Assembly (NCBI GenBank): GCA_965661905.1
Contig: CBFIFQ010000001.1
Coordinates: forward strand, 1,138 to 65,137
Direction: 5' to 3'
DNA: 64,000 nt
Source of the DNA: Opitutales bacterium
GTDB lineage: Bacteria > Verrucomicrobiota > Verrucomicrobiia > Opitutales > Seribacteraceae
A model generated the notes under the pieces. It saw nothing but the letters and a program-made list of their open reading frames with translations. It made no database searches and was not told the origin of the DNA. Positions 4,454 to 54,976 of this stretch are shown one piece after another. How positions within the stretch are numbered: the first letter of the stretch is position 1; every line of letters begins with the position of its first letter. Made by a program: the position numbers and the translations under genes.

Positions 4454-7400
4454 TTACAAGTAATTCAATAAAGAAGTGTTCAGCAGTTGAGCACCAACCT
4501 GCATAGCAGCCTGATAGGCAGTGGATACCCTCGAAAGCCTCATAATGGTCTCGGATAAATCGATATCCAGGTCTCGGGATACTCTCTGATCAAGTTGCAT
4601 GAAGTAATCTTCATCATGGGCCTTGACGGTTTCCATACGAACCATGCTGGCAGTAAGTTCCCCCATTTTATCGATAATATTGTCTTCGAGCTCAATAAGT
4701 CTCTTTTCTGAATCCTCGACTTCCTGGGAATAAAAAGAAGGGGTTGCGTTTGCTAACCCATCACGAAGCTCTACGAGAGTATTGACCACATCACCCAATT
4801 CGGCGGTGCCTCCATCTGCAGAATTTAAGAAGGATGAAATAGCACTGTCTTTGCCCACATAAAACTCTGAATTATTTTCAGAACCCATGTAGGTTACATT
4901 TACAATCTCACCTTTCTCGTTACGGTGATCAAGAAAGGTTTTCGAACCTGTGGCAAAAGAAAAAGTGTCTCCAATTCGAGGACCGATAGGTGCGAGGCTC
5001 GTAATAGGCTCAGTGGGTTCATTGATCTCAAAACCGGCGATTCTGAATGGACCAGGGTCATTGGGGTTTTCTTGCCACAATATTGATGCCTCAAGAGATT
5101 CCTGCCCAACCTGAATCGTAACCTTTGTGAAATCTTCAGGGATATTGCCATCTTGAAAAAAGTACCTACCCGCTTCCTCAACTTTTAACCCAACTATATT
5201 ACCGTTTGCATCGACAACAGCTTTTGCGGATGCATCCGAACCGGCTGCACCAGCAGTTGGGATTGAGACTATGGGTGCATCATCACGGGTAGCATCAAAT
5301 TGAAGGACATGCTGCAGTGGGTTTTCTACAATTTCCCATATGTAATTTGCGACCTGACTTTGACCATCCACACTTGGTATAAGTTCAGAATCAGGAAGCA
5401 CCATTTCTGTAGAGCCAAGAAAATCGGCTGATGGAAGAAAATTATTAAAATTATCCCGCATACTCCGATAGTATTGACCATCGTATAACACAATGTCACC
5501 TGAGTGATATGTTTTATTGGAAGACCACTCAGACCCTTGTGTTCGTACCTCAGCAGGCACTTTAATCATTTTATTATCTGCCAGAAGGGCTTCAAACGCT
5601 GCATTACTATCTATATTGGTAGCTTCTGTCGCCACATAGTAAGCTTTCTCTTCCTGGTGGAAGATGTATTCACCGGTGTCTAAGGCAATGTCCGTATTTT
5701 CAGCTTCACTCGAAAATACTGTTTCCTGTCCTTCCCTCGGCAGTGCTGTCAGCTTGAAGACTGTACCATCGCTACGAGCCGAAGCTTCTCGAATATTGGC
5801 AATGGGAGCTGAAGGGTTTGTGGGATCAAAACCTTCAACATTGGTATCAGTATTCGAATTTGCAGTGGCAATGTAATACTTGTCTAGGGATTCATCGTAG
5901 ATGTATTCCCCTTTCAATAAATTAAATGGTTCGCCTTCTACTATGGGTACAACATTGGGCGGGAATTGATCTTGTATGGACAGCCATAAGGAGCTGTCAG
6001 TAGCTAAGGTGTCATCAGTTGGAATGAAATATTGACCATCTAACTGCTCAATAGGCTGTTCAAAGGTGATCATTTGACTGGAAATGATCTGACTTCCCTC
6101 AGCCGCTGCAGCAAGCCTATACTCTTGGGTTTGGTGGTCAAAGTAGACCGTCCCTTCAGACTCGGAACCTGATACATCGAAAGTTGCAACTGGGTAAGAA
6201 ATGGTCTTTACCTTTTCTTCAGCTAGTAAATCTAAATCCTCGGGAGTTGTATCAACTGGCAGTGCATCTTGAGAGAAAAGGAGGATATTGCTATTATGGG
6301 CCTTAGCTTCAGAAAATTCATTAAACAACCTACCATCCAAGGAAACATGAAATTCTTTAAGGGTTGTACCCGTTGCCTGTACATTCCAATCTTCACGGTC
6401 AACGCTGTACCCTGATGGTAGTTCTTTCCAGTAAGTCGATATTCCTTCAGCAGGTTTGTGATTGAAATTATCATTTATTTGAGACTCCCAAAGTTTGCCT
6501 TCAAATTCGGTGATACTTCCAAGTTCATAGGTCTGGAGCCTTTTCCATGGATCGGAATGGGTAACGGAAAGGCGAGATGTACCATCTGAAGAAGAAATCC
6601 CCACATTAATTTCTTGTGTCCAGGTTGGGTCAATCGAATCTTCAGGGATTTCTTCGTAGGTAACGCCTTCATTTTCTACTCCAACCGTAATGGGACTAAA
6701 GAACTCTTGAGTAACTGAGTTGACCGCTTGAAAAGGAGATGCACTGAAGTAGGTGGGAGCAACTTCATCAAAGTTTAGGTTGGCATTCGTAGCTTGATCA
6801 AGAACATCAGCACTGACATTGGTTATTACCCCATTTATTTTACCAGAAAGTGTCGCTATGGAAGTGCCAAGACTCGACCATTTTGCAGATCTTCCTGGGT
6901 TTGTGACGTCGAAGTCAGCAGATGTGGAGTCGCTACTTATGGCAACAGATGCTTCGTAGTAAATTCCGTTGTGCCTGACAACTGCACCCTGCTCGTAGTT
7001 TTTCACTTCCCAATCTGTAGAAAGAGAGGAAACCGAATCTTCATCAAATGAATAAAAGTCGCTGCCATCATGCACCACATCACCAGCTGAGTAATTGGCA
7101 AAGGCATCAAATTGCCCCTTCATAATTTCGCCTGCAACTACAACCTGCTGATTGTTTGCCTGAAGTACATCACCTGAGGTGTAAGCTAGGTTGGGGTTAA
7201 AGGTTGAAAGCCCTGCGGGGTTATGCGGAACATCATTGCTCAGCGTGCCGTTTGGATCAAGGACTTTGTGCCAGGCTCCATCGTGAAAGACGAAGTCATT
7301 TTCAGCATATTCATCAGGTCCCCAGTTCCCCTTGACGGGATCTTGGAACTGCAAGAAGCGTGGGTTGTCTGGGTCCGTGATATCATCCAAAACCTTGTCT

Positions 7401-8434
7401 CCTGCCTTAAAAGAAAGTTTATCGCTCCAAAGAGAAAAAGAACCATTCGGTGCTTCAAAGACGGCATCATCCACAATTTTCTTTTCGGAGGGAGTCAGGG
7501 TTTCGTAGGAAGAGCCTGGGTAAAGAATCTCAGTCTGCGCTGCTCTTTTTTGAGCAATTTGGTTAGGATAATAATGACTTGCGTCCCACTGCGTCCGGTA
7601 CTCTGCCTTGGCGTCGTAGGACTTCCCGACAGTGCCGTAAACTAATAAGTCGCCATTTGTAGATATTTCCGAATATAGTTTTATATCCGATTTCCGAGGA
7701 GTTTCAGAACCAACCGATCCACGGATGAAAGCCCTGTAGTTTTCACCTTCAGGTTCAAGAGGTTCAAAGTCAGAAAGTATCTCAGGGTCTTCGTTAATTA
7801 ACTTATTCGCAAGTTCAGTAATTTTATCAGTAGTTAATCCATCAGCAGTTGCTTCAATTACATATTCCCTTCCGTTTAAATGAATAACCACTTGTTCACC
7901 TGCCTTGATCTGCCTGGAACCATCGGCTCCAATATCACCCACAAAGCTCGAATTTAAAGATATAGTTGATCTTTGCTCTTGGCCCAATTGAATTTCAGAA
8001 TTCCCAAACTCAGGCTTTAATTGAGTGCCAGCAAAAAGGGAGCGCCCTCTATGCCTGGCGTTAACCCGATTCAGTGCTTCCTCAATGAGTTGATTGATCT
8101 CATTGCCATAGGTCTCCATAGCAGGGCCGTTAAGGCTGGAACCGGCAACCCTTGATATTTCCTGGGCACGCTGGTTAAGTTCCCTCAGGTTATCTAAGTT
8201 TAGATGCCCAGCATTAAGGAATTCAGAGGCATAAGAAGCATTTCTTTGATACTGGGCAAGTTTCCCCTTTTCAGTATCGATATCGATGACGCGGCCAAGA
8301 CGCATGCCATCATCTTCCGGTAGAGTGATTTTTTGCCCACTCGAAATTTGTTTATCCAATTTATAGCGCTGCATATCCAAGTCACGAATGGTATTCGTGA
8401 TGGAGTCAGAAACACTAAGGTTAGGTAAACGCAT
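4454..8434 (-). CDS. flgL: flagellar hook-associated protein 3 (FlgL), giant 1326-aa form
   Basis: Flagellin-type N-terminal helices (SITNTIRDLDMQRYKLDKQISSGQKI...) and C-terminal helices (DLSETIMRLSRVSTAYQAAMQVGAQLLNTSLLNYL). It follows flgK directly. There is no Cys in 1326 residues. Confidence 0.85.
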   Translation of the reverse strand: MRLPNLSVSDSITNTIRDLDMQRYKLDKQISSGQKITLPEDDGMRLGRVIDIDTEKGKLAQYQRNASYASEFLNAGHLNLDNLRELNQRAQEISRVAGSSLNGPAMETYGNEINQLIEEALNRVNARHRGRSLFAGTQLKPEFGNSEIQLGQEQRSTISLNSSFVGDIGADGSRQIKAGEQVVIHLNGREYVIEATADGLTTDKITELANKLINEDPEILSDFEPLEPEGENYRAFIRGSVGSETPRKSDIKLYSEISTNGDLLVYGTVGKSYDAKAEYRTQWDASHYYPNQIAQKRAAQTEILYPGSSYETLTPSEKKIVDDAVFEAPNGSFSLWSDKLSFKAGDKVLDDITDPDNPRFLQFQDPVKGNWGPDEYAENDFVFHDGAWHKVLDPNGTLSNDVPHNPAGLSTFNPNLAYTSGDVLQANNQQVVVAGEIMKGQFDAFANYSAGDVVHDGSDFYSFDEDSVSSLSTDWEVKNYEQGAVVRHNGIYYEASVAISSDSTSADFDVTNPGRSAKWSSLGTSIATLSGKINGVITNVSADVLDQATNANLNFDEVAPTYFSASPFQAVNSVTQEFFSPITVGVENEGVTYEEIPEDSIDPTWTQEINVGISSSDGTSRLSVTHSDPWKRLQTYELGSITEFEGKLWESQINDNFNHKPAEGISTYWKELPSGYSVDREDWNVQATGTTLKEFHVSLDGRLFNEFSEAKAHNSNILLFSQDALPVDTTPEDLDLLAEEKVKTISYPVATFDVSGSESEGTVYFDHQTQEYRLAAAAEGSQIISSQMITFEQPIEQLDGQYFIPTDDTLATDSSLWLSIQDQFPPNVVPIVEGEPFNLLKGEYIYDESLDKYYIATANSNTDTNVEGFDPTNPSAPIANIREASARSDGTVFKLTALPREGQETVFSSEAENTDIALDTGEYIFHQEEKAYYVATEATNIDSNAAFEALLADNKMIKVPAEVRTQGSEWSSNKTYHSGDIVLYDGQYYRSMRDNFNNFLPSADFLGSTEMVLPDSELIPSVDGQSQVANYIWEIVENPLQHVLQFDATRDDAPIVSIPTAGAAGSDASAKAVVDANGNIVGLKVEEAGRYFFQDGNIPEDFTKVTIQVGQESLEASILWQENPNDPGPFRIAGFEINEPTEPITSLAPIGPRIGDTFSFATGSKTFLDHRNEKGEIVNVTYMGSENNSEFYVGKDSAISSFLNSADGGTAELGDVVNTLVELRDGLANATPSFYSQEVEDSEKRLIELEDNIIDKMGELTASMVRMETVKAHDEDYFMQLDQRVSRDLDIDLSETIMRLSRVSTAYQAAMQVGAQLLNTSLLNYL

Positions 8435-8443
8435 ATAGGTAAA

Positions 8444-11400
8444 TTATTTAACCAAACCAAGCACAACAAGTTCTAGCATTTTGTCGAGAGTATTTAGAAC
8501 CCGTGCGGAGGCCTGAAATGATCTTTGAAATTGCATCAGGTCAGATACTTCCTCATCAATTGATACAGAACTAACGGCACGTCGTTGGTCTAAAAGAAGA
8601 GTTTCGAGAGACTTTTGGTGAGCATGGTTGTCATTGAGGTCAGCCAGTGAATTGCCAATATCCGCATTCATTGTAGAGATGTGATCAGTGAATTCACCAT
8701 CGTTGGCTAAGTCTGCAATTTTAAAGGCAACCTCATTAGCCCCTTCTGCAAAATCATGAGTTGATTTAAGGTTTTCTACGGAAAGGTCATTATCGACCCT
8801 GAGACTTGTAGCAAGGTTCCAGTCATTTTGCAGGACGGCATCAAAAGAAAAATTGTCCCCAATAATAAATGCTTTCTCACCTTGTTCGATCCTAAAAGGA
8901 ATCGTTTCATAAGCAAGTAGTAGTGATCTGCCATCATCATCAGTCCCAACAAGTTTGTCATTCCCAGGGTAGCTTTCATCCAATTCGAGAGTTACATGCT
9001 GCATCTTATCAGCTGAAGCATAAAACTGATAGATGTCTGCATTATTAGGATCATCAAGGAATAACTTTAAGTCATCACTCTCTCGAACTAGTGCTTGGTT
9101 GGGGACTTGTTCAGGGAAAATGGGGGTAGTATTAACAATAGTAAAGGTATCAGACTCGGCTGTAGGGAGCGTCATGTTTACTTCATCCCTAAAAAGTTGC
9201 AATTCTCCTGTGCCCTCAACGCCATAAAGACCATATTCTTCTTCCATGATCAGGTTGTTTCCTGCAACTGCGCGGGTAAGGAAGGCATCAAAACCAAAAA
9301 GATACCCACCCTGGTCGTCATCCGGGTTATAAATAGCATTCACTTGAGTGACGAAGTCCGAAACGAGATCGTTCAAACTCGTCCGAAACCTTTCCATTTC
9401 GTTCGCCCTTGCTGATTGATATCCGTGGATAGCACCTGCACTCAGGTCCAACTCTATACCATCCGAAAAAATTGCGTCTGATGAAGGAAATGAATTGCCC
9501 GCATTGAGGATATTAAAAGTCGTAATTTCACCATTCTTAACAACGGCCTCAGCAATGCCAATGTTAACTTCCTGAAGAGTCCCATTGGCAAGGTTATGAC
9601 CAGAGGATGAAATCTTTCGGATTACACTGTTAGGATCCCCATCCACGACTTTGGGGTTAAAAACATGGAAGTTAGATGCCCACTCTGAAGAGGAAGGATC
9701 AAAGGATGCAATAACTGCCGGATCAGTTATGATTGAAGGAGCGGAATCAACTATGAAATGCTGATCATTTAGCTCATCATAGTATACCTCATTATCAAAA
9801 AACTGAAGGGTTCCCTGGGTTGTATCCAGGTTCTTGACGCTTGAGTCTACAAAGGAGTTAAGCCTAACAAAAGAATCGGATTCATCGTAATTCGGGATGT
9901 CACCTTCAGCGATATCTTGAACTGCAAGGTAGTAGAGCCTTTCATTATTATTGTTAAGACTTGAAATAATATCACCTTTAGCAATTGATAACTCACCATT
10001 TTCATCCAGTCCTTCTTCTTTGGCATTTGCCATAGAGGGCAGGCTGTCTCCAATTACCCATAGGGAGTCCAAAGTTTGGTCGCCTGCTGCTTTAGGGACT
10101 TGCTGTTCGTTTTCTGTGTCTCCTTCGAGTATCCCGGAAAGGTCGGTTCCTTTGCTTACATTAGAAAACACTTGGTAATAAGTGCCTTGGTAAAGGATAA
10201 CTTCACCAGCTAAATATGTACGGCTAGCTAATCCATCTTCACCTAATTCCTCAGAGACAGGGGCAACTTCTTCTGTGGCTTGAAGGAATTTGCCTTCGTA
10301 ATAAATTTGGTCACCTTGCTGGAAAGTCTCAATATCAGAATGTCGCTTTTTTATCTCCTGCACTTGACCATTAGGTGCTGTGGAAATCTTCATAAACTTC
10401 CGTGTATCACTGACATCGTCACCCTTTTGGGTATTGGTAAGGGCTTGGTAGTAGGAATCCCCCCGATAAAAGACATCACCTTCTTTGCGAGCAATTTCCG
10501 TGAGAAAAGGGACCGTGTTAGCTTGACCTCCTCCAGTAACATTCGACATTTCTTCTCCATCATCAACCGGGGCATTAATCCCAGCTTCACCCACTATGAC
10601 AGCTTCTGCGTTCTCTCCTTGAGTGTTTCCTGTGACATCTACATTAACGAGAGGATCTCCTTGCTGTACTTCGTCACCTTCTTGAACAAAAACTTCATTG
10701 ACCGTTCCGCCTTTAGGAGCGGAAACAATCTCTCCTGTATCTGTTTCAACAAGATTTGATGTGGGCTTGGGAGGAAGTAAAGAAACTAAGATCGGTCCCT
10801 CAGAATCGTTGTACAAAGAACCTCCATCCAATACCTCAAAACGACCCAGGTTGCCATTGGCGTCAATTTTTGCTCTTACTTTAGCCGCTTTTCCATTGGG
10901 GTCATTGGGGGCTGCAATTACAAATTCCTGTCCCCAGTCGTTGGTAATATTTTTGGGACCCATTGGGTCAAGGAGGTTTACCTTCTCATTGGCAGTACCC
11001 TGAACATACAAGTTTAGGAAACCGGAGGGTTTTCCATCGACCACATCTTCCTCGACTTTGAAATCCATTAATTGAGACAACTCTTCAAGAAGAGCTTGCC
11101 GTTTATCACGATAGGTTACCGCTTTGCCTTTATCCTGAAGCTCAAAGCGGCGTACTTGCTTGTTGGTTTCATGCAGTTGAGCTAGCACCCGGTTTACATC
11201 ATCAACGGATCTTTTAACAGTTTCGGAAAGATCTTCTTCAATGGAATCCAAGCTGCTACCTGCATCATTAAACCTTTTGACCAAGGTGCCAACTTTGTTG
11301 AAAAGTTCCTGTTTTATGGTTGGCTCATCAGGTGAGGCGGACAACTCTTGAAAGGCATTAAAAAAATCATTGAGGGCACGGGTCAGACTGCCTGGGGCAA

Positions 11401-11764
11401 GGTCACTGTCATGAAGGTCATCCAGCCCGACATTTATACCGTTTCGGGTTATAGTTTCACCGAGTGCACCCTGAAGAAGGCTAAGGATCTCCTGTTGAGC
11501 TTCCAAGCTTGCGGTTTCAGACAACTCATTGACCACTCGTCTATCCAGGAGCTCCGACCTTGCATGTTCAAGCCCTGCTGCTTCAAGACCTGATGTCTGA
11601 AGTTCACCAAAGCTACCGTACATTACACCTTCCCGGGCCAAAACTTTTTGGCGGGCATAAGTTTCGTCATTTACATGGGCTAAATTTTGGCCAGCAATTT
11701 CCGCAGTCTTCGCATGATAGCGTAAGGCTTCGCTGTTTTTGCTTATTTCTCCAAGTAAAGACAT
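8444..11764 (-). CDS. flgK: flagellar hook-associated protein 1 (FlgK), 1106-aa form
   Basis: The N-terminal axial-protein motif (AEIAGQNLAHVNDETYARQKV) and the FlgK C-terminus (VSIDEEVSDLMQFQRSFQASARVLNTLDKMLE) are present. It lies between flgN and flgL and is Cys-free. Confidence 0.9.
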   Translation of the reverse strand: MSLLGEISKNSEALRYHAKTAEIAGQNLAHVNDETYARQKVLAREGVMYGSFGELQTSGLEAAGLEHARSELLDRRVVNELSETASLEAQQEILSLLQGALGETITRNGINVGLDDLHDSDLAPGSLTRALNDFFNAFQELSASPDEPTIKQELFNKVGTLVKRFNDAGSSLDSIEEDLSETVKRSVDDVNRVLAQLHETNKQVRRFELQDKGKAVTYRDKRQALLEELSQLMDFKVEEDVVDGKPSGFLNLYVQGTANEKVNLLDPMGPKNITNDWGQEFVIAAPNDPNGKAAKVRAKIDANGNLGRFEVLDGGSLYNDSEGPILVSLLPPKPTSNLVETDTGEIVSAPKGGTVNEVFVQEGDEVQQGDPLVNVDVTGNTQGENAEAVIVGEAGINAPVDDGEEMSNVTGGGQANTVPFLTEIARKEGDVFYRGDSYYQALTNTQKGDDVSDTRKFMKISTAPNGQVQEIKKRHSDIETFQQGDQIYYEGKFLQATEEVAPVSEELGEDGLASRTYLAGEVILYQGTYYQVFSNVSKGTDLSGILEGDTENEQQVPKAAGDQTLDSLWVIGDSLPSMANAKEEGLDENGELSIAKGDIISSLNNNNERLYYLAVQDIAEGDIPNYDESDSFVRLNSFVDSSVKNLDTTQGTLQFFDNEVYYDELNDQHFIVDSAPSIITDPAVIASFDPSSSEWASNFHVFNPKVVDGDPNSVIRKISSSGHNLANGTLQEVNIGIAEAVVKNGEITTFNILNAGNSFPSSDAIFSDGIELDLSAGAIHGYQSARANEMERFRTSLNDLVSDFVTQVNAIYNPDDDQGGYLFGFDAFLTRAVAGNNLIMEEEYGLYGVEGTGELQLFRDEVNMTLPTAESDTFTIVNTTPIFPEQVPNQALVRESDDLKLFLDDPNNADIYQFYASADKMQHVTLELDESYPGNDKLVGTDDDGRSLLLAYETIPFRIEQGEKAFIIGDNFSFDAVLQNDWNLATSLRVDNDLSVENLKSTHDFAEGANEVAFKIADLANDGEFTDHISTMNADIGNSLADLNDNHAHQKSLETLLLDQRRAVSSVSIDEEVSDLMQFQRSFQASARVLNTLDKMLELVVLGLVK

Positions 11765-28663: not shown

Positions 28664-29518
28664 CTATCGTTTAAGGTTTACTGCTTCAGTTAAAATGGCA
28701 TCCGAGGTTGTGATGACACGGGATCCTGCCTGAAAGGACCTTTGGTAAGAGATCATAGCAGCGAATTCATTGGTTAAATCCACATTTGATAATTCGAGGG
28801 CATATTGCTTGATCTTGCCATTGGAACCAACGGCAGGGATGGTGTTATCCAAAATACCTGCCAAATTCTGGCCTTCTTGCCCGTTTGAATAAAAACCGTT
28901 ACCCACCCTCCTGAGGTATTGAGGGGACTGGAAGTTTGCGATCTTAAGCTGACCGGATTTCCGAATAATATCTTCACCCTCACGATTTACCACAAGATTA
29001 ACCACACCATCTTCCTCAATCCTCCGGGTAAGAAGGGTCTCTCCATCTTCAAGCCCTACTGTCATCGGTTTCCCGTCAACATCAAGTAATTGGAATCGGT
29101 ATTGATCCCGGGTGACAACAAATCCTTCCACCGTAGATTCGAAAGCACCAGCTCTAGTGTAGAAAAAGTCACCGGTGGTTGGGTCTTGCAATTCGAAAAA
29201 ACCACCAGCATTTGGCAGAGCTTCACCCTGAATTGCGATATCTAAATCCAATCCAGTTACCTCAATAGTGCCTTGGTTAAAGTCTGATGAAAGTGAACTA
29301 ACATGAACACCTGTGCCATGTTGCTGAATATTGTTGCTGGGGACACCATCAGCACCAGACTCTGCATCATTGACATGCATGTAAAAGTTATCAGAAAAAT
29401 TTGCTCGAGATGCCTTGTAGCCAAGTGAATTAACATTGGCGATATTGTTCCCCAATACTTGCAAGCCTTGAGTAAGACTCTTCAAGGAAGAAACGCCGTT
29501 ATGTAGAGAAGGTATCAT
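28664..29518 (-). CDS. flgE: flagellar hook protein FlgE (short, 284 aa)
   Basis: The N-terminus has LGNNIANVNSLGYKASRANF and the C-terminus has LSNVDLTNEFAAMISYQRSFQAGSRVITTSDAIL. It follows flgD. Confidence 0.85.
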   Translation of the reverse strand: MIPSLHNGVSSLKSLTQGLQVLGNNIANVNSLGYKASRANFSDNFYMHVNDAESGADGVPSNNIQQHGTGVHVSSLSSDFNQGTIEVTGLDLDIAIQGEALPNAGGFFELQDPTTGDFFYTRAGAFESTVEGFVVTRDQYRFQLLDVDGKPMTVGLEDGETLLTRRIEEDGVVNLVVNREGEDIIRKSGQLKIANFQSPQYLRRVGNGFYSNGQEGQNLAGILDNTIPAVGSNGKIKQYALELSNVDLTNEFAAMISYQRSFQAGSRVITTSDAILTEAVNLKR

Positions 29519-29970: not shown

Positions 29971-30906
29971 TTAAGCGGCTAAGGGATTGAGTGAGTCCAT
30001 CTCTTGGTAGGAACTGTACACAGATATTTTAAGACCATTTATCCCCGAAAGGGAATCTCCGTCGAGAAACGAAAGTTGCTCTTTTGAGCGTAAGTCTGGA
30101 CAAATTAACGACAGGGAAAGATGTGACCCGTCCTTTTGTAGGCGAACTCCAAGCTTCCCGCCACTAGGCAGGTCGAGGGCAAACCTTATAACTTTTCTGT
30201 CAAACTTTGATATGTAAGCAATGCGAGGCGGGATTGCATCTTGAACAAACTGCTTAAGTGCTTTCTGGGCAGTGCTGTGATTCAACGAATCGCTTTTACC
30301 TGAGAAGGCTGCGGCAGTAAGATTCGATTCAGTTGCATTCATGGATGAGTTGACTAAAGCATTTTTTGCGCCACCACCTTTTTTCTTTTTTCCGTGATCT
30401 TTTGATCCAGTATTTTCATGCTCAGAAGGTAGATCTCTTGAAGATTTATCAACAGGTATCTCTTTGGTGGTCTTAGCCTCTTTCGGAGGGACTAGGGTTA
30501 TAGCCCTATCCGGGGCAGATTGTGTCCCCCTATTGGCCACAGGCATAGTGACCATGGAAGGTAATTTTTTGGGTGCAAGTGAATTTTGAGATAGCCATTT
30601 GGAAATTACTGGACTGGCACTTCCTTTGACAGTAACAGGGACATTCTGGTGACTATTTAATTGTGGGGAGTTGGCTGACTTTCCTTTTGCCTTAGGTGAT
30701 GAAGGCAGTTTTGCTTGTACGCTTGGTTGATCAGACGATGAAGGCTTTGATCCATTCGTCTTGGATTGCTTGCGTAAGTTAGACTCAAAGGTTGCATTAA
30801 TTTTGGGCGGAAGCCAAAAAGAACCATTTTTGCCTATCGGTTGGTGGGCCGAATACAAGGAAGTCGAAGAACGAGCAGTGGATGGAATCTGTGAAACTGA
30901 ATCCAT
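29971..30906 (-). CDS. fliK: hook-length control protein FliK-like
   Basis: A Ser/Pro/Lys-rich low-complexity body with a C-terminal domain (FALDLPSGGKLGVRLQKDGSHLSLSLICPD). It sits between the ylxF-like gene and flgD. Confidence 0.55.
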   Translation of the reverse strand: MDSVSQIPSTARSSTSLYSAHQPIGKNGSFWLPPKINATFESNLRKQSKTNGSKPSSSDQPSVQAKLPSSPKAKGKSANSPQLNSHQNVPVTVKGSASPVISKWLSQNSLAPKKLPSMVTMPVANRGTQSAPDRAITLVPPKEAKTTKEIPVDKSSRDLPSEHENTGSKDHGKKKKGGGAKNALVNSSMNATESNLTAAAFSGKSDSLNHSTAQKALKQFVQDAIPPRIAYISKFDRKVIRFALDLPSGGKLGVRLQKDGSHLSLSLICPDLRSKEQLSFLDGDSLSGINGLKISVYSSYQEMDSLNPLAA

Positions 30907-30911
30907 TCTTA

Positions 30912-31580
30912 TTAATTCTGGATGGATACGGGTGCATTCCCGTCTATATCCAAACTAGGCAGTAAGCCCCGGTCCCTCATGGCCAAGGCGTCCGCCAGCT
31001 CAATCATAGCATCATCGTCGCTGTTAAGCATGAATGCAATGATAGGGGCTTTATCCTCAGCTTTTAGAAGCTCAAAAATCGTAAGGGCTTGCTCAAATTT
31101 TCTTTTTTGCCTCCAATTCTGAATCTCAACACTTGCAACTTCTGGCCCCATTTCCACCCATCTTTTTGATGTATCTTTATATTCCTTAAGTTTTTCTTCG
31201 CTTAGGTCTTGTCCCTGTTTTGCCTCGAAATCCGCAAGGCGATCCTCCAAATCTTCCCGGATTTGATTGAGTTCACGCTTCTGTTTTTCAAGAGACTCTA
31301 AATCCATAGAAATCGCAGACTCTCTTGCGTCCAATTCATTTTCTCTTTCAATAAGTCTTTCTTTTAATGCAGCTAACTCCTTAGAAAGTTGATTCATCGA
31401 ATGCGTTTCAGCTGGCGAGTAGCTCGTGTCATCGGCATCAAATTCAACGCTAGTAAACTCCGCCTTAATTATCGGTTTAGGCTTAAATAAAGCATCGTAA
31501 TTGAGTGTAAGCATGATGCCTGCACTTGCCACTGATAAAATGACGGCAGCCACTACAATGAGTGAAGGAGATATTTTCAT
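30912..31580 (-). CDS. membrane-anchored coiled-coil protein (YlxF/MotE-like position)
   Basis: An N-terminal TM segment, a long coiled coil and a C-terminal helical segment. It occupies the ylxF slot between fliJ and fliK. Confidence 0.4.
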   Translation of the reverse strand: MKISPSLIVVAAVILSVASAGIMLTLNYDALFKPKPIIKAEFTSVEFDADDTSYSPAETHSMNQLSKELAALKERLIERENELDARESAISMDLESLEKQKRELNQIREDLEDRLADFEAKQGQDLSEEKLKEYKDTSKRWVEMGPEVASVEIQNWRQKRKFEQALTIFELLKAEDKAPIIAFMLNSDDDAMIELADALAMRDRGLLPSLDIDGNAPVSIQN

Positions 31581-42788: not shown

Positions 42789-44697
42789 CCCTCTCTTAGA
42801 ATCCTTAAAATCGCCGGCTGACCTCAAGGGTTTCAACTCTTCTCAACTCGAGCTACTCTCAAGCGAAATCCGAGAGCGCATTATTCACGCTACTTCCATT
42901 AATGGTGGCCATGTTGGCCCCAATTTAGGCGTAGTCGAGCTTACCATTGCATTACACTTAGCATTTGAATCTCCTCGCGATTCTTTTTGCTGGGATGTTT
43001 CCCATCAGGGTTATGTGCACAAGCTACTGACAGGACGAATCGATGAGCGTTTTGATAAAATCCGGAATACTGACGGATACAGTGGCTTTTTATCTAGGGA
43101 CGAAAGCGAACATGACGCTTATGGGGCTGGCCACGCAGGAACCGCACTCTCAGCTGCATTGGGAATGTGTATGGCCAGAGATTTAAATAAAGGGGACGAG
43201 CATGTTGTGGCTATCGCAGGGGATGCTGCTTTCACTTGTGGTATTACCTTGGAAGCACTCAACAACATCGCCTGTTCGACCAAGAAGTTCATCCTTGTAC
43301 TCAATGATAATGAGTGGTCTATTGCCAAAAATGTTGGTGCCTTCTCAAGGTACTTCAACGAGTTAATAGCGAATCCCATTTACAATAAATTCCACAAAGA
43401 CGCAGAGGCTTTTCTATCTGCTATGCCCGGCGGAAAATCTTTAATGAAATTCGTTTCCAAGGCGAAGCGTGACACAAAAGAATTATTGGCCCCTTCCAGT
43501 ATTTTTGAAAAACTTGGCATTCGATATCTCGGCCCGATTGATGGCCACGACATAGATTCCCTCGTTCATTTTTTTGAATTCGCAAAACAGTCCGATGAAC
43601 CCATCGTATTGCATATCTTGACCGAGAAAGGTCGGGGCTATCCTGTTGCACTCAAAGAGCCGGAGAAATGGCATGGTTCCGGGCCATTCGATAAGGATTC
43701 GGGCGTAATGGTAAGTTCACCTGCAGGTTCTCCCCCCAAATACCAAGATGTTTTTGGTAATGCACTTTCTTTGATTGCAACCAGTGATGACCGTGTGGTG
43801 GGTATCACCGCTGCGATGCCAAGTGGAACTGGCTTGGACTCTTTCCAGGAGAACTTCCCGGGGCGATTCTTTGATGTTGGCATTGCCGAAGAACATGCAG
43901 TCTTACTTGCGGCAGGTATGGCTTGTAAAGGACTTCGCCCCGTCTGTGGAATTTATTCAACTTTTCTCCAGCGTGCCTTTGATCCGATCGTGCATGATGT
44001 TTGCTTGCAAAATTTACCCGTCACTTTTTGCCTTGATCGGGCTGGTTTATCACCGAACGATGGCCCTACTCACCATGGGCTGTTTGATATTTCCTATTTA
44101 AGTTGCGTCCCTAATGCAGTAATTATGCAACCTCGCCACGAAGACGAATTGCAGGACATGCTCTACACTTCCATTAATCATGATGGCCCATCTTTCATCC
44201 GTTATCCACGAGGAACTGCTCTTGGTGTGCCAATTTCCCCTTCTCCTAATTCGCTGGACATTGGGAAAGCTGAAGTTATCGAGGAGGGGACTTTAGGGGC
44301 GATCTGGGCGATTGGTGACTTTGTTGCCGAAGCCCTATCAATCAATCAATTGATTAACGATGAATATGGCAAAAAATTCACCATTGTAAACGCCAGGTTT
44401 ATCAAACCTTTGGACGCAGGCTTGCTTTCCGAACATGGAAAAAAATACAAGTTAATTGCCACGATGGAAGATGGTGTTTTGCGAGGCGGGTTTGGTTCAT
44501 CGGTTGTTGATTTCCTGAATGACCTCAAGTCAGACTCAGATGTTCTTAGGTTTGGTTGGCCCGACAAATTTATTTCTCACGGAAGTTCGGTTACTCAACT
44601 CAGAAAAGAACACTCCCTTGACCTGCAGTCTATTTACAAAAAACTTTGTGCGGCCCTGCCAGGTAAATTGATAGCCCAAAACCATTTAGTTTCCTAG
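42778..44697 (+). CDS. dxs: 1-deoxy-D-xylulose-5-phosphate synthase
   Basis: INGGHVGPNLGVVELTIALH, GAGHAGTALSAALGM and GDAAFTCGITLEALNN (ThDP motif). Length is 639 aa. Confidence 0.95.
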   Translation: MINSPLLESLKSPADLKGFNSSQLELLSSEIRERIIHATSINGGHVGPNLGVVELTIALHLAFESPRDSFCWDVSHQGYVHKLLTGRIDERFDKIRNTDGYSGFLSRDESEHDAYGAGHAGTALSAALGMCMARDLNKGDEHVVAIAGDAAFTCGITLEALNNIACSTKKFILVLNDNEWSIAKNVGAFSRYFNELIANPIYNKFHKDAEAFLSAMPGGKSLMKFVSKAKRDTKELLAPSSIFEKLGIRYLGPIDGHDIDSLVHFFEFAKQSDEPIVLHILTEKGRGYPVALKEPEKWHGSGPFDKDSGVMVSSPAGSPPKYQDVFGNALSLIATSDDRVVGITAAMPSGTGLDSFQENFPGRFFDVGIAEEHAVLLAAGMACKGLRPVCGIYSTFLQRAFDPIVHDVCLQNLPVTFCLDRAGLSPNDGPTHHGLFDISYLSCVPNAVIMQPRHEDELQDMLYTSINHDGPSFIRYPRGTALGVPISPSPNSLDIGKAEVIEEGTLGAIWAIGDFVAEALSINQLINDEYGKKFTIVNARFIKPLDAGLLSEHGKKYKLIATMEDGVLRGGFGSSVVDFLNDLKSDSDVLRFGWPDKFISHGSSVTQLRKEHSLDLQSIYKKLCAALPGKLIAQNHLVS

Positions 44698-47600
44698 GGA
44701 AACAGACTCCATTCCTTTAATTCGTAATCATACTTTGCCCCCTGCCCTTGTACTTGTTGCCGGCAGTACAGCCATTTGCTGTCACTATTGCTGTATAGAT
44801 ACCCTTCGTTATTCTCCGCATTCCAATAAGTTGGATTAGTCCAATACCAGGGGCCTTTATTACTTTTAAACCAGAGTCCATTAGTATTTTTTTCCGGGTA
44901 AAGCCACACCCAACCCCAAGTCGTATGAAAGGACCACCCCGAAGCAGTAGTTATAAAGTCTCCTATCCAGCCACGGCTCCAACCGCCGGGCAACTCAACA
45001 GCATCTGTTGTATTTTCTCCGAGGTATGGTTTGATGATAATTTCACTGGATTCTTCGGTTTTGAGCCCTGAACTATCAACCGCGAGTATTGATATTGGGT
45101 GAGTACCGATTTTATCTGGGTAGGCTGTACCTGAGATGACCAACTTATTGGCCTCACTCTTACTGAAGGTTAGCCAGTCTGGCAGGTTAGGCTGAACCAC
45201 AAATGTTTCGCCATCAGGATCAAACGAATGGACCAATATCTCAATATCTTCATATTGCTCAAAGGCATATTCATTTTTAAGTAATACTCTAGGCTTAAAT
45301 ACTGAACTATTCTTAACCATTAATGGATGATTTAAGCTGAACACTTCCCCCCTCTCATTAGTTAGCACAAAGCTTACATTATAGATAATATCCTGGAGGC
45401 TGTAAGGAGGTTGGCCAGAAAGGCTTCCTGACCCATCTTCATTTATACGCAAATGGATCCAGTCAGGCAGACTTGAGTTTTGCTCGGCAATTATACTATC
45501 GTGCATCCAAGGCCCTGTTTTAAAAGGGAAAGTAAAGAAAGAGTTTGAAGAAATGGCCTGTGGTAACTGCGGAGACATACCTGGTTGATTGAGTGGGGGT
45601 CCTAGGCTCGCAAGAGTAATGACTCTTTCACTTAAAGAGAGATCATCGGAGTAGGCAAAGAGGATATTGTTTTCACGAATTGGGCTTATTGTGTCTATTT
45701 TTTGAACTCCGAGCTCAGTGGGGATAAAAGAATCATGGATATGCAAAGTACTCGGTTCTAGCTTTGCGAGATAAGTGCCGGGTCCTGCACTGTCTGTCTC
45801 CAATGAATTCAATGGATTGAACCTTTTTGAAAAAGTTGCGGAGAGGAATAAGTAACCATCCTTACTAATTTTGAAATCTGTCAACCGGTCAGTACCTTCC
45901 CCGCCATACCCTGAAAGAGATTCGCAAGTAAGATCTTGGTTAAAGCTGGCAACAAATATGTCTAGTCCTGAAGTAGAAACGACTTCATGATCTCCAACTG
46001 AAATGGAGCCATCAAACTCACCCGCTAAGTAGAATTTGTTATCTACTGAATTGTGTAACAAGCAATTACTCCTTACGGCACCACTACCAGATAATATCGT
46101 GATTTCACCTTCCAAACCGTTGCCATTGATCTTTGAAATGAAAGATGCCTTCCCGTCATTATAATAGACTTCATTCCCCCAGTTGAATTCTCTGTCAAAA
46201 TTCCCCGAAATAACTATCTGATTACCAAGTGAAACATGACCTGTTATTTGATCCATGTAAGTACCGCCAATCGGCCGAAAGCTTTGCAATTGATTGCTAG
46301 AAAATTGAGCCAAAAAACCGTCCTGGAGACCACGGGGAAATAATGGATTGCTGCCCCCACGATTGTATGCTCCCCACATTTGCCCTGAAACGGTAAAGGA
46401 CTCTTTACTGCCCACAACCGATAGAGATAAAAGGTCCTCATCTGAACTGAGAATTTCCAGAAGCTTTATTTCGCCATTTAATGATAATTCGGCAACAAAG
46501 ACATTGTACCCATCAGAACCCACATAATTCTGGTTGTTTATGGAAAGATCATTTCTGAATGTACCGCAAATCATTATTTCCCCTGTTGAACTTTGGGTGA
46601 CGGAACTAATGGCAGCTTCACTGGAAGAATTAATTGCTATCATATGAGTTAGGCTTAAGTTCGAATCGGTTAGTAAAATGAATCCATACCTAATTCCAGT
46701 TTTTTGGATTTCAACCCCCTGATAAGAGATAGCTGAAATCGCATTTCCGGCGATAAGTTTTGCTTGGTGATCTAATTCTATAATCTCAATAATCTTACCA
46801 TTTCCCTTGATACTTCTTGTCGAATGGAAGTCAGGGATCTGACCTGAATAATTCAGAGCATTATTTTTCTTAATTTGATAATCAATACTTACTTGTGAAC
46901 TGGCCCCATCGAGATCAAAAGATTGAACAACGATCGTGCCCCTGTCCTCACGGTTTGGTATTACACCAAAAATAGTTGCCTTTCCGTCACCTTCATTTTG
47001 AAGAGTTAGGTAATCTGGTGCGTTGACCAACCTAAATTCTGCAAAATTTCTATTGACTAAAGAAATTTCCTTAGAGAAAAATTCTCCTCCGAGCAATAGT
47101 AAGTCATTGATTTCCTTAAATTGAACAGGTGGTCTACTTTCAAATTTAATGAGAAGCGATTCGTTGGGCTGGGTTTGAGTTAAGTCATAAGAATCTATAA
47201 TCAGCCCCTGTTCCGAAGTAATTTTTAGAGCGGTTGTGCCATAACGATTCATCAGTAGAGTCGCGTTGCCTTCATCTCCATCGCCCAAAATATCTTTTTG
47301 CCAAATAACATCGCCATTCATCTGTTGGAGTTTTAAAATTGAATGATCTTTGGGGCTATTTTCTTCTCCTCCGCTTAGCATATCAGGCTCCTGGGTATAG
47401 CTTACCAAAGCCATTATGTTGCCAAAAGGAGTAACTCTAATAGAATCGGTAGAAAGGTTTATCCCAGGGCCCAAGTCGTTTTGCCATAAAATGTTTAAAT
47501 CTGAAGAAAGCTTTAAGATCAAAGATGAATTTTCTTCACTTACGGCAATTACTTCTTCTGTGTTTTTAACATAGTCACCACCGGTTTTGATTCTTAACGA

Positions 47601-54851: not shown

Positions 54852-54976
54852 ACACAACAATCAATCAAAAAACTTATATTTGCAAAGCTTTTAGGGTGCA
54901 GAATGATGAGTTTTGATTAAGAAAAAAGGATCCTTTATGAAATAACTCTATGCTACATTAAAAATTCTCAAAAAAG

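Follow-up and report, generated by a model that had tools for sequence, protein, structure and literature searches.

Three segments of the oversized hook-associated protein FlgL, beginning at residues 474, 629 and 969, truly belong to the CBM5/12 (ChtBD3) superfamily, and we give about an even chance (probability roughly 0.5) to the reading that they are structural modules of an enlarged collar at the hook–filament junction. The gene lies in the window, the whole stretch of 64,000 nucleotides that was analysed, and Table 1 lists the features discussed here. This FlgL is about four times the normal size, and its source is a marine member of the Opitutales (Verrucomicrobiota).

Table 1. Coordinates of FlgL, FlgK and their regions and units in the window.
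Feature	Residues (peptide)	Nucleotides	Strand	Evidence or remark
flgL (HAP3, hook-filament junction)	1326 aa	4454..8434	-	Insert of ~1050 aa
FlgL N-terminal D0/D1 helical region	1-140	8015..8434	-	Pfam Flagellin_N 33.4 bits, aa 13-137
FlgL variable clade-specific section of insert	326-600	6635..7459	-	Alignment occupancy 0-45%, flanks >90%
Two weak candidates, variable region	412-429 (FNPNLAYTSGDVLQANNQ), 447-463 (NYSAGDVVHDGSDFYSF)	7046..7201	-	
CBM5/12-type unit Lc	474-523 (DWEVKNYEQGAVVRHNGIYYEAS...KWSSLG)	6866..7015	-	Core HMM; variable clade-specific region
CBM5/12-type unit Ld	629-672 (PWKRLQTYELGSITEFEGKLWESQINDNFNHKPAEGISTYWKEL)	6419..6550	-	hhalign and family profile
Candidate degenerate unit Le	841-858 (KGEYIYDESLDKYYIATA; KGEYIY..)	5861..5914	-	hhalign probability 18.8% to Lg
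Candidate degenerate unit Lf	920-938 (TGEYIFHQEEKAYYVATEA; TGEYIF..)	5621..5677	-	Conserved hairpin; hhalign
CBM5/12-type unit Lg	969-1040	5315..5530	-	Pfam CBM_5_12, hhalign, PDB-sequence profile, AF2
FlgL C-terminal D1/D0 helical region	~1195-1326	4457..4852	-	NF005980 aa 1180-1326; Flagellin_C aa 1280-1326
flgK (hook-associated protein 1)	1106 aa	8444..11764	-	TIGR02492 171.8 bits (cutoff 170.75), FlgK_D1, Flg_bbr_C
CBM5/12-type unit in FlgK	513-571 (ASRTYLAGEVILYQGTYYQVF...SLWVI)	10052..10228	-	blastp, core HMM
Weak second FlgK unit	479-493 (ETFQQGDQIYYEGKF)	10286..10330	-	Core HMM 5.4 bits, shuffle maximum 3.5

The original prediction took the host protein to be FlgL, and this assignment is borne out by a TIGR02550 score of 135.4 bits (cutoff 127.2); the gene occupies the usual site in a flagellar cluster, in the order flgN-flgK, flgL, fliW-csrA. 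All six peptide strings that had been singled out are present in its minus-strand open reading frame, with nucleotide coordinates off by 3–9, and the three main ones correspond to residues 474–500 (DWEV..AIS, nt 6935–7015), 629–672 (PWKRL..KEL, nt 6419–6550) and 969–1001 (EWSS..FLP, nt 5432–5530). In the family alignment the N-terminal D0/D1 region is more than 90% conserved; the Flagellin_C match at the other end is weak, and that region itself is very highly conserved in the family. NCBIfam models of large FlgL proteins (749 and 827 positions) align to the termini only. We infer that the insert replaces the D2 domain and would lie on the exposed side; in solved hook–filament junctions, as described in PMC12221982, D2 of both FlgK and FlgL faces the medium, and each flagellum carries 11 FlgL and 11 FlgK subunits. 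Cysteine is absent from the FlgL and FlgK sequences, and the composition of the FlgL unit region is unremarkable (GC 0.42–0.46, matching its flanks).

A PF02839 search of whole FlgL, which had been proposed as a check on the carbohydrate-binding-module pattern, gave 43.9 bits (E = 2.5e-11), above the gathering score of 26.2. Unit Lg reaches 28.0 bits alone, over residues 969–990 and model positions 1–22 of 44; its family profile finds 4ny2 (E = 1e-5) and 1ed7 (E = 4.8e-4) among PDB sequences, and hhalign pairs it with solved CBM12 at 94.3% probability (E = 1e-7). Pfam gives no match to Ld alone. By hhalign Ld aligns with Lg (94.9%, E = 4.7e-8) and with solved CBM12 (78.4%, E = 1.7e-5), its profile matches the PDB sequences 7b5h_AE (E = 0.0018), 4ny2 (E = 0.0058) and 2rts (E = 0.014), and the same profile retrieves, at E-values of 8e-85 to 1e-31, array proteins that score 108–441 bits against Pfam CBM_5_12. 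Lc is sub-threshold alone in Pfam (18.2 bits, E = 0.0026, residues 478–501); a core HMM trained on the units at residues 629 and 969 only scores its residues 478–495 at 17.9 bits, and the maximum over 1000 shuffles of FlgL was 4.2 bits; the shuffle maximum for FlgK was 3.5 bits.

That the resemblance merely reflects the chance composition of an aromatic- and glycine-rich β-hairpin pattern is very improbable. The modules are short, the Pfam matches span only half of the model, and three of the six segments originally listed score weakly or like shuffled sequence, all of which would suit such an explanation. However, core HMM scores of 13.9–52.8 bits were observed where every one of 1000 shuffles stayed below 5 bits, the profile, profile–profile and fold evidence is independent and concordant, and the core W, Y, G, G, Y/W, P and W positions are invariant in 121 FlgL proteins. 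Shuffles, profiles, fold and conservation together essentially refute chance for the units at residues 474, 629 and 969, and the pattern claimed for the three main segments is above chance by Pfam, hhalign and the core HMM.

The 127 FlgL homologues are 774–1491 aa long, nearly all of them over 1000 aa, and keep the start MR[IL]PNLSVS; the named relatives are all marine Opitutales/Opitutia MAGs or SAGs. Overall identity in the family drops to 33–40%, yet Ld and Lg are found in 121 of 121 members, and neither these two units nor the polar residues of their signature vary. The invariant residues of Ld are W, R, L, G, S, N, N, P, W, Y, E, D and W, with a conserved SGY..REDW motif downstream that reaches residue 683. 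In Lg, a loop insertion of about 30 aa (25–50 aa) separates the hairpin from the closing N..W..V strand, and in short homologues the unit is a canonical module of about 45 aa. The region that holds Lc is occupied in just 30–45% of family members. Such modules had been thought undescribed on hook-associated proteins, and full-text literature searches indeed found no description of CBM5/12-type modules on one; PF02839 is, however, already called in public databases on 91 of 120 listed FlgL homologues.

The three weaker copies cannot be told apart from chance. Neither Pfam nor the core HMM matches Lf, which hhalign aligns with Lg at 43.8% probability (E = 2.4e-4); its hairpin (G.YVYD....YYVA) is kept in the family and is predicted as a β-hairpin at residues 324–336 of the AF2 model, and some homologues have two clear extra units directly after this position. 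Le likewise matches neither, and its family occupancy is about 40–65%. Residues 412–429 score 14.2 bits in Pfam (E = 0.046), and the candidate NYSAGD.. (nt 7046–7096) scores 0.8 bits with the core HMM at residues 447–455, inside the shuffle range. The neighbouring FlgK has homologues of 844–1826 aa, mostly over 1000 aa, and its residues 513–571 match FlgL residues 967–1035 (blastp E = 4.7e-5), with 14.7 bits in Pfam (E = 0.032) and 13.9 bits with the core HMM. Among FlgK-like open reading frames adjoining FlgL in other genomes, some of which are fragments, 39 of 49 have at least one core HMM match of at least 8 bits, and precomputed PF02839 calls exist on some FlgK homologues of 1706–1811 aa.

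An AF2 model of FlgL residues 600–1200 (601 residues) has a pLDDT of 85.2 and a pTM of 0.78 (model-internal confidence), and the Lg unit has a pLDDT of 84.4; a pTM of this size over 601 residues points to a single compact body and not to a chain of separate beads. Foldseek matches in the PDB are almost only CBM5/12 domains of chitinases and a deacetylase, and also phage tail fibres, and they include 2d49 (45 columns, rmsd 1.7 Å, TMt 0.67, probability 1.0), ChiB (49 columns, rmsd 3.7 Å) and the tandem CBM12 of 4nyy (E = 3.4e-3). All of these E-values exceed 1e-3, owing to the very small size of the modules, and Foldseek detected nothing beyond CBM5/12 domains for the FlgL insert among PDB folds. 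The best PDB matches of these confident models are CBM5/12 domains, in line with the small β fold that the original prediction had implied.

All profile alignments of the units end after the first ~22–26 residues, before the ligand-binding half. When the units were aligned with MAFFT over their full length to 1ED7, 4ILV, 9JT0 and 4NY2, a His that is at least 90% conserved in Ld fell opposite the invariant Trp of CBM12 (G/D-W-x-P motif), a placement from a single alignment with a 2-residue gap nearby; at this position Lg has V/I/L in the family and Phe in the window. The Y-W/W-W pair of CBM5, which is almost fully conserved and mediates chitin binding (PMC8449059), is absent from the FlgL units in the alignment with solved CBM5/12 modules. 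Since they lack these chitin-binding residues, the units are probably structural building blocks and not proven sugar binders, and classical chitin or cellulose binding by them is unlikely. The original interpretation is supported for structure and homology; for glycan binding, sheath tethering and adhesion the analyses gave no support.

In the structural reading that we prefer, small cysteine-free β modules would travel through the flagellar export channel in the unfolded state and regain their fold outside, where they would act mainly as rigid blocks in a compact multi-domain outer body, and the outer bodies together would surround the junction with an additional collar of roughly 2 MDa. The aromatic chitin-binding site would have been swapped for near-invariant polar residues (N-x-N-H-x-P, and R-E-D-W just after the unit) that most likely serve domain–domain or subunit–subunit packing, or a non-chitin ligand. 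The invariance of both units and the polar signature in so divergent a family speaks for a structural role, as does the fact that the nearest profile and fold relatives are phage fibre-like proteins with long arrays of repeats; against it, conservation of the polar residues suits a ligand site equally as well as an interface. The modules could instead be lectins or adhesins, with a junction collar that binds a glycan (on glycosylated flagellin of the same cell, in a layer resembling a sheath, or in polysaccharides from algae or particles) through a non-canonical site, which we consider possible and rather doubtful. They are true CBM5/12 homologues in a surface-exposed D2 position, their invariant polar and aromatic residues could make a new site, the window's Lg keeps an aromatic residue (Phe) at the binding-Trp position, and receptor-binding phage fibres are among the closest fold relatives. 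On the contig of a 65%-identical FlgL homologue, nonulosonic-acid genes (NeuB, a dehydratase and an aminotransferase) follow flgL at a distance of a few kb, an arrangement that would be compatible with glycosylation of flagellin. Specialists in polysaccharides are reported from the host clade, and an adhesive role would be in keeping with this. However, the units lack both the Y-W/W-W pair (PMC8449059) and the CBM12 Trp, their ligand-binding half is left unmatched by every profile, just 11 copies per flagellum at the filament base are poorly placed for adhesion, and the predicted packing is compact.

A phage-derived or anti-phage insert, with CBM5/12 arrays borrowed from tail fibres and a collar that shields or mimics the site used by flagellotropic phages, seems improbable to us, even though the best E-values do come from phage proteins. 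Matches in BFVD (E = 3.6e-8 to 1e-3) are named ChiC_BD, CBM5/12, Chitin-binding type-3 or tail protein, one 4341-aa phage fibre-like protein with an Mtd_N match holds 38 CBM5/12 units, and the top match of the Ld profile has a sub-threshold N-terminal Mtd_N match. The top PDB match of Lg is the tail fibre of the flagellotropic Agrobacterium phage 7-7-1 (9RKV), the tail fibres of Agrobacterium phage Milano (8FQC) and cyanophage A-1(L) (8KEC) are also among its Foldseek matches, and FlgL residues 968–999 give a weak PHROG tail-fibre match (E = 0.006). The BFVD matches have, however, TM-scores of about 0.1 and rmsd values of 20–50 Å, so the likeness is one of repeated small modules only; the two units are vertically conserved across the family with GC like that of their flanks, and the 7-7-1 paper draws no link between these domains and flagellum binding.

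Solved CBM5 and CBM12 modules (PF02839, SMART ChtBD3) include the ChiA1 ChBD of B. circulans (1ED7), the ChiC ChBD of S. griseus (2D49), the ChiB CBM5 of S. marcescens (1E15) and the CBM12 pair of a Vibrio chitin oligosaccharide deacetylase (4NY2). The FlgL units are likewise all-β and about 45 aa long and share W-x4-Y-x2-G-x-V-x-Y/F-x-G-x2-Y/W ... P ... W with them (hhalign 78–94%, Foldseek probability 0.98–1.0). They differ in that their host is an axial flagellar protein and not a carbohydrate-active enzyme, that His, V/I/L or F stands for the binding Trp and the Y-W/W-W pair is replaced, that they have no disulfides, and that one has a 25–50-aa loop. The phage fibre arrays (9RKV, 8FQC, 8KEC) and All3316 (7B5H) are, like FlgL, non-enzymatic structural proteins with several CBM5/12-type modules; All3316, from the Anabaena contractile injection system, shows 38% identity over 48 Foldseek columns (7b5h_AE). 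In those proteins, which make up trimeric fibres or baseplates, the modules stand in long tandem arrays, whereas FlgL has 2–4 units scattered among other β domains on a flagellin-type D0/D1 scaffold. The bulky D2 of Campylobacter jejuni FlgL is likewise inserted between the N-terminal and the C-terminal helices, with the same expected junction-surface exposure and 11 copies; the Opitutales insert is far larger (about 1050 aa) and FlgK is enlarged too, and the passages of PMC12221982 on the junction proteins report no CBM5/12-type modules for enlarged D2 domains of the C. jejuni type. A survey of flagellin outer domains (682 structural clusters, with proteolytic flagellins cited; PMC11532411), whose text does not mention chitin, carbohydrate, CBM or FlgL, describes foreign domains between D0/D1 helices that are, like the FlgL insert, displayed on the flagellar surface; those domains are on the filament in thousands of copies, whereas the FlgL insert belongs to an 11-copy junction layer.

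The protein that carries the repeat units is, as judged from its sequence, a true FlgL: the NCBIfam equivalog TIGR02550 scores 135.4 bits versus a cutoff of 127.2, Flagellin_N (Pfam) matches aa 13–137 with 33.4 bits versus 26.6, and Flagellin_C (Pfam) matches the final 47 residues weakly, with 12.7 bits versus 23. Its gene lies directly after flgK, as expected for flgL, in the order FlgA-FlgH-FlgI-rod-binding(FlgJ)-FlgN-FlgK-FlgL-FliW-CsrA, and the remaining flagellar genes, FliF to FlgG, MotAB and FliA, are upstream on the same strand. The neighbourhood was compared with that of a 65%-identical FlgL homologue (P0004), and the flagellar gene order of its contig, L001, is as in the window. No flagellin gene was found in the window, nor, where that flank was available, within 6 kb of flgL in 59 related loci, and the GC content is uniform over the region (0.42–0.46). 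Apart from CBM_5_12 the families on FlgL are flagellar only, and no catalytic domain was found on it by Pfam, NCBIfam or Foldseek. The hook-protein-like ORF of the same cluster is merely 284 aa long, compared with the giant FlgK and FlgL, and a very long protein elsewhere in the window looks, from its domains, like a giant surface adhesin.

Coordinates of the features discussed (window positions, except where contig L001 is named)
Feature	Position	Strand	Description
Flagellar supercluster	496-36638	(-)	one strand, FliF through FlgL, FliW, CsrA
flgL	4454..8434	(-)	1326 aa; TIGR02550, Flagellin_N, weak Flagellin_C
FlgL insert	~aa 140 to aa 1195	(-)	occupies D2 domain position
Common motif, FlgL copy	5135-5251	(-)	FlgL aa 1062-1100; A.A.VDANGN.VG..V...G.Y
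Common motif, FlgK copy	10811-10894	(-)	FlgK aa 291-318; same motif
flgK	8444..11764	(-)	1106 aa, FlgL partner, gene before flgL; TIGR02492, FlgK_D1, Flg_bbr_C
Biotin/lipoyl-type hairpin	10640-10726	(-)	FlgK aa 347-375; VSAPKGGTVNEVFVQEGDEVQQGDPLVNV
Hook-protein-like ORF	28664-29518	(-)	Flg_bb_rod, FlgE/F/G D1, Flg_bbr_C
ORFs beside it	29971-30906, 30912-31580		no Pfam match
Adhesin-like protein	44694-54860	(-)	3388 aa; Big_9, He_PIG, FG-GAP_2, Bact_surface_Ig-like, cadherin-like domains
Nonulosonic-acid genes, L001	10491-13848		aminotransferase, Polysacc_synt_2/epimerase-type dehydratase, NeuB, after FliW-CsrA-DUF1015-glycosyltransferase

The original prediction held that the insert contains CBM5/12-like repeats, and all six peptide strings it quoted were found in the minus-strand flgL ORF, displaced by 3–9 nt from the coordinates it gave. 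The profile check that it proposed, with Pfam CBM_5_12 (PF02839), gave 43.9 bits (E 2.5e-11) for whole FlgL, above the gathering threshold of 26.2. When segments were scanned separately, aa 969–990 scored 28.0 bits by itself, aa 478–501 18.2 bits, aa 412–429 14.2 bits and FlgK aa 513–532 14.7 bits, and the PWKRL unit (aa 629) and two "GEYI" hairpins gave zero matches. A core HMM of 29 positions, built solely from the families of the units at aa 629 and aa 969, scored 17.9 bits at FlgL aa 478–495 and 13.9 and 5.4 bits at two FlgK segments; since the top score from 1000 shuffles each of FlgL and FlgK was 4.2 bits, three units in FlgL and one or more in FlgK lie beyond chance. Of three proposed weaker copies, NYSAGD.. 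(aa 447–463) scored 0.8 bits with the core HMM, and KGEYIY.. (aa 841–858) and TGEYIF.. (aa 920–938) reached hhalign probabilities of 19% and 44%; none of the three is thereby established, and by these two methods the support was too weak for us to count the two hairpins as units.

Profile comparisons gave the same assignment for the main units. Against a verified alignment of six solved CBM12 sequences, hhalign returned 94.3% (E 1e-7) for the aa 969 unit and 78.4% (E 1.7e-5) for the aa 629 unit, and the two units matched each other at 94.9% (E 4.7e-8). Among PDB sequences, the aa 969 profile found 4ny2, the tandem CBM12 of a Vibrio chitin deacetylase (E 1e-5), and 1ed7, the ChiA1 chitin-binding domain (E 4.8e-4), and the aa 629 profile found 7b5h_AE (All3316 of the Anabaena contractile injection system, E 0.0018), 4ny2 (E 0.0058) and 2rts (a Pyrococcus chitinase chitin-binding domain, E 0.014). 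When 1.84 billion representatives were searched exhaustively by HMM with the aa 629 profile, 1727 matches reached E ≤ 1e-3, the best being large proteins that have as many as 38 repeats; five of these score 108–441 bits for CBM_5_12, and one sub-threshold match each to Mtd_N and BclA_C among these five hints at phage-fibre-like proteins. That the aa 629 unit is not CBM-like, as its missing Pfam match might suggest, is ruled out by hhalign, by the PDB-sequence and representative searches, and by the Pfam scores of its matches. The three main segments of the prediction (aa 474, 629 and 969) thus proved to be CBM5/12-type beyond chance, the aa 969 unit by Pfam and hhalign, the aa 629 unit by hhalign and the aa 474 unit by the core HMM relative to shuffles.

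The small beta fold, whose absence together with that of a CBM profile match had been named as grounds for abandoning the prediction, is present in AlphaFold2 models and superposes on CBM5/12: the aa 969 unit (30-sequence alignment) was modelled with strands only at a pLDDT of 84.4, and strands predominate in aa 600–1200 (43 sequences; pLDDT 85.2, pTM 0.78). Foldseek matched the aa 969 model in the PDB almost only to CBM5/12 domains (ChiB, ChiC 2d49, Vibrio deacetylases and 1ed7; prob 0.9–0.98), with a TM-score of 0.53 for 2d49, and the 1ed7 superposition had an rmsd of 1.1 Å over 26 columns; further matches were 7b5h_AE and the tail fibres of Agrobacterium phages 7-7-1 and Milano and cyanophage A-1(L). 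For the 601-residue model the best match was the tandem CBM12 of 4nyy (E 3.4e-3; all Foldseek PDB E-values are above 1e-3 because the domains are so short, ~45 residues), followed over 45 columns by 2d49 (rmsd 1.7 Å, TM-score 0.67, prob 1.0), and by ChiB (rmsd 3.7 Å) and 7b5h_AE at 38% identity, which, Foldseek giving no query ranges, we infer to point to the aa 629 unit. The same PDB search found no solved-structure match for other domains of the insert. Among viral predicted structures there were 24 matches at E ≤ 1e-3, the best of them ~1000-aa phage proteins named ChiC_BD, CBM5/12, chitin-binding type-3 or tail protein; with TM-scores of ~0.1, these have repeated modules in common with FlgL, not overall shape. 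A functional link between the 7-7-1 tail-fibre match and flagellum binding was considered and rejected: the paper on this phage mentions no carbohydrate or chitin domain and ascribes initial flagellum contact elsewhere, so the match is a fold analogy only.

Two of the units recur throughout a family. Among 5.8 billion proteins searched, 127 relatives of this FlgL turned up, nearly all 1000–1500 aa long; those with a name come from MAGs of Opitutales, Opitutae or Verrucomicrobia. Of the 120 homologues listed, 91 have a precomputed PF02839 call. When one genome per GTDB species was scanned, 59 loci emerged, every one in a MAG or SAG of Opitutales, Opitutia, Puniceicoccaceae or Verrucomicrobiota, among them Ca. 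Chordibacter forsetii and Ca. Seribacter sulfatis. In the family alignment aa 1–325 are conserved, aa 326–600 are variable and clade-specific (the aa 474 unit lies here), and aa 600–1195 form a conserved insert core that includes both the aa 629–672 unit (consensus HS..WKRL..Y..GD.VE..GKLWES.I..N.NH.P......YWKE, then SGY...REDW) and the aa 969–1040 unit (QG.EWSS...YD.GQIVLY.G.YYQ...FNN, a variable loop, then P.DEF...N..W...PL.HV.KF). These two are in all 121 family proteins, 34 of which have three or four units, and in some homologues the G.YVYD..YYVA hairpin is followed by a tandem pair of additional units, both very clear. The two units of the insert core and their polar signature residues are strictly kept although overall identity falls to 33–40%. 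The motif common to FlgL and FlgK (Table; E 0.12 by blastp when the two proteins were compared), which has no family assignment, is also strongly conserved across the FlgL family.

Do the units keep the residues with which such modules bind chitin? In the family alignments W9 and W48 of the aa 629 unit are invariant and position 15 is a near-invariant aromatic, and W9, Y15 and W72 of the aa 969 unit are invariant; in MAFFT alignments these align with the core aromatics W2, Y8 and W42 of 1ED7. In CjCBM5 the hydrophobic-core Tyr and Trp are Y265 and W299, and a consecutive Y-W or W-W pair, almost fully conserved in CBM5, binds chitin (PMC8449059). The six solved CBM12 sequences all have H27, W33 and P35. 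In the ChiA1 domain we take W687 to be the key binding residue. The profile alignments all end after the N-terminal W...hairpin (Pfam positions 1–22 or 6–29 of 44), and hhalign against CBM12 covers columns 2–27 of 46. Full-length MAFFT alignment with 1ED7, 4ILV, 9JT0 and 4NY2 places N-H-K-P of the aa 629 unit, with a His conserved in ≥90%, opposite CBM12 G/D-W-x-P, and G-V/I-x-P of short-form aa 969 units at the same place; the window's own aa 969 unit has Phe at the CBM12 Trp position, and no aromatic pair follows the hairpin in alignments of either unit. The core residues are thus kept and a near-invariant His or an aliphatic residue takes the place of the exposed Trp, so that, from sequence alone, the surface aromatics of CBM5 (the pair) and CBM12 (the Trp) appear lost.

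By sequence and predicted fold the FlgL units belong to the CBM5/12 superfamily. Because these binding residues are lost and FlgL lies outside the carbohydrate-active enzymes within which CAZy defines such modules, they are to be called CBM5/12-type modules rather than carbohydrate-binding modules. In full-text searches that paired FlgL or hook-associated proteins with carbohydrate-binding modules or chitin-binding domains, only unrelated genome reports came up, and a survey of flagellin outer domains (PMC11532411) mentions neither CBMs nor FlgL. The claim that such modules on a hook-associated protein are undescribed therefore agrees with these searches, but the feature was not hidden, since databases already carry the PF02839 call; as a described biological feature it appears to be new.

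Several FlgK homologues of 1706–1811 aa (from a set of 1706–1826 aa, P0225–P0240) have a Pfam-significant CBM_5_12 call, so that in the wider clade FlgK and FlgL alike make use of this module type. The window FlgK also has a biotin/lipoyl-type hairpin (Biotin_lipoyl 23.9 bits, GA 22.1; Biotin_lipoyl_2 26.5 bits, GA 29.8) that lacks a lysine where modification usually occurs; PF00364 and PF25984 are found on close FlgK homologues, one of which NCBI names "biotin/lipoyl-binding protein".

The paper on the solved hook-filament junction (PMC12221982) describes, for Salmonella and C. jejuni, 11 FlgK and 11 FlgL subunits with D2 outward, FlgL being the distal 11-subunit layer, and a C. jejuni FlgL D2 that is already bulky. 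By analogy the FlgL insert would be displayed on the junction surface. If Salmonella FlgL and FlgK are 317 and 553 aa, as we assume, the extra residues of the two proteins may amount to ~1.9 MDa per flagellum. We favour, with a probability of about 0.5, the reading that the units are scaffold modules whose conserved polar patches would act as interfaces within the junction. On this reading the collar would far exceed in width the Salmonella junction of ~150–190 Å. Arguing for it are the high pTM over 601 residues, the strict retention of two units and their polar signature at such low overall identity, the complete lack of cysteine in both FlgL and FlgK, which suits export in an unfolded state, the loss of the canonical aromatic site, and kinship with the repeat arrays of fibrous phage proteins.

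The same kinship could be read as a phage-derived origin or an anti-phage role of the insert, which we consider improbable, and pure chance resemblance is negligible given the scores relative to shuffles. The main rival is a re-tooled glycan-binding site in the units, a tentative alternative that must accommodate the lost aromatics. On its side, flgL of the related contig L001 is followed a few kb downstream by genes for nonulosonic-acid biosynthesis; they could serve flagellin glycosylation, which their proximity makes plausible. The window counterpart of that region would fall beyond position 1. This Opitutales clade has a polysaccharide lifestyle, which would suit such a site as well. The fullest form of this rival, which as a whole we think rather unlikely, is that giant FlgK and FlgL together form a ~2 MDa lectin-like collar at the hook-filament junction, its re-tooled CBM5/12 modules having a His/Asn-based site instead of the aromatic platform; the ligand would be a specific glycan, either nonulosonic acid on flagellin of the same cell or a sulfated polysaccharide of algae, and the junction, not the filament, would gain an anchoring or adhesive role in marine polysaccharide-degrading Verrucomicrobiota.

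The usual view of junction proteins is of minimal adaptors that link hook and filament mechanically. In this clade, whose members are abundant in the sea, each FlgL subunit would put ~1000 additional residues, and each FlgK ~550, into an exposed body built in part from chitin-binding-type modules. If structural, as the scaffold reading has it, this body would be a new junction architecture that should show up in cryo-ET and may have to do with mechanical load or with anchoring the filament; if glycan-binding, it would make this the first junction to bear a lectin and would tie motility hardware to polysaccharide lifestyle. Re-use of CBM5/12 folds without the canonical binding residues also bears on automated "carbohydrate-binding" annotation. 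An enlarged D2 in a junction protein is of a known kind, and CBM5/12 is a known module; the FlgL of this window uses the one within the other.
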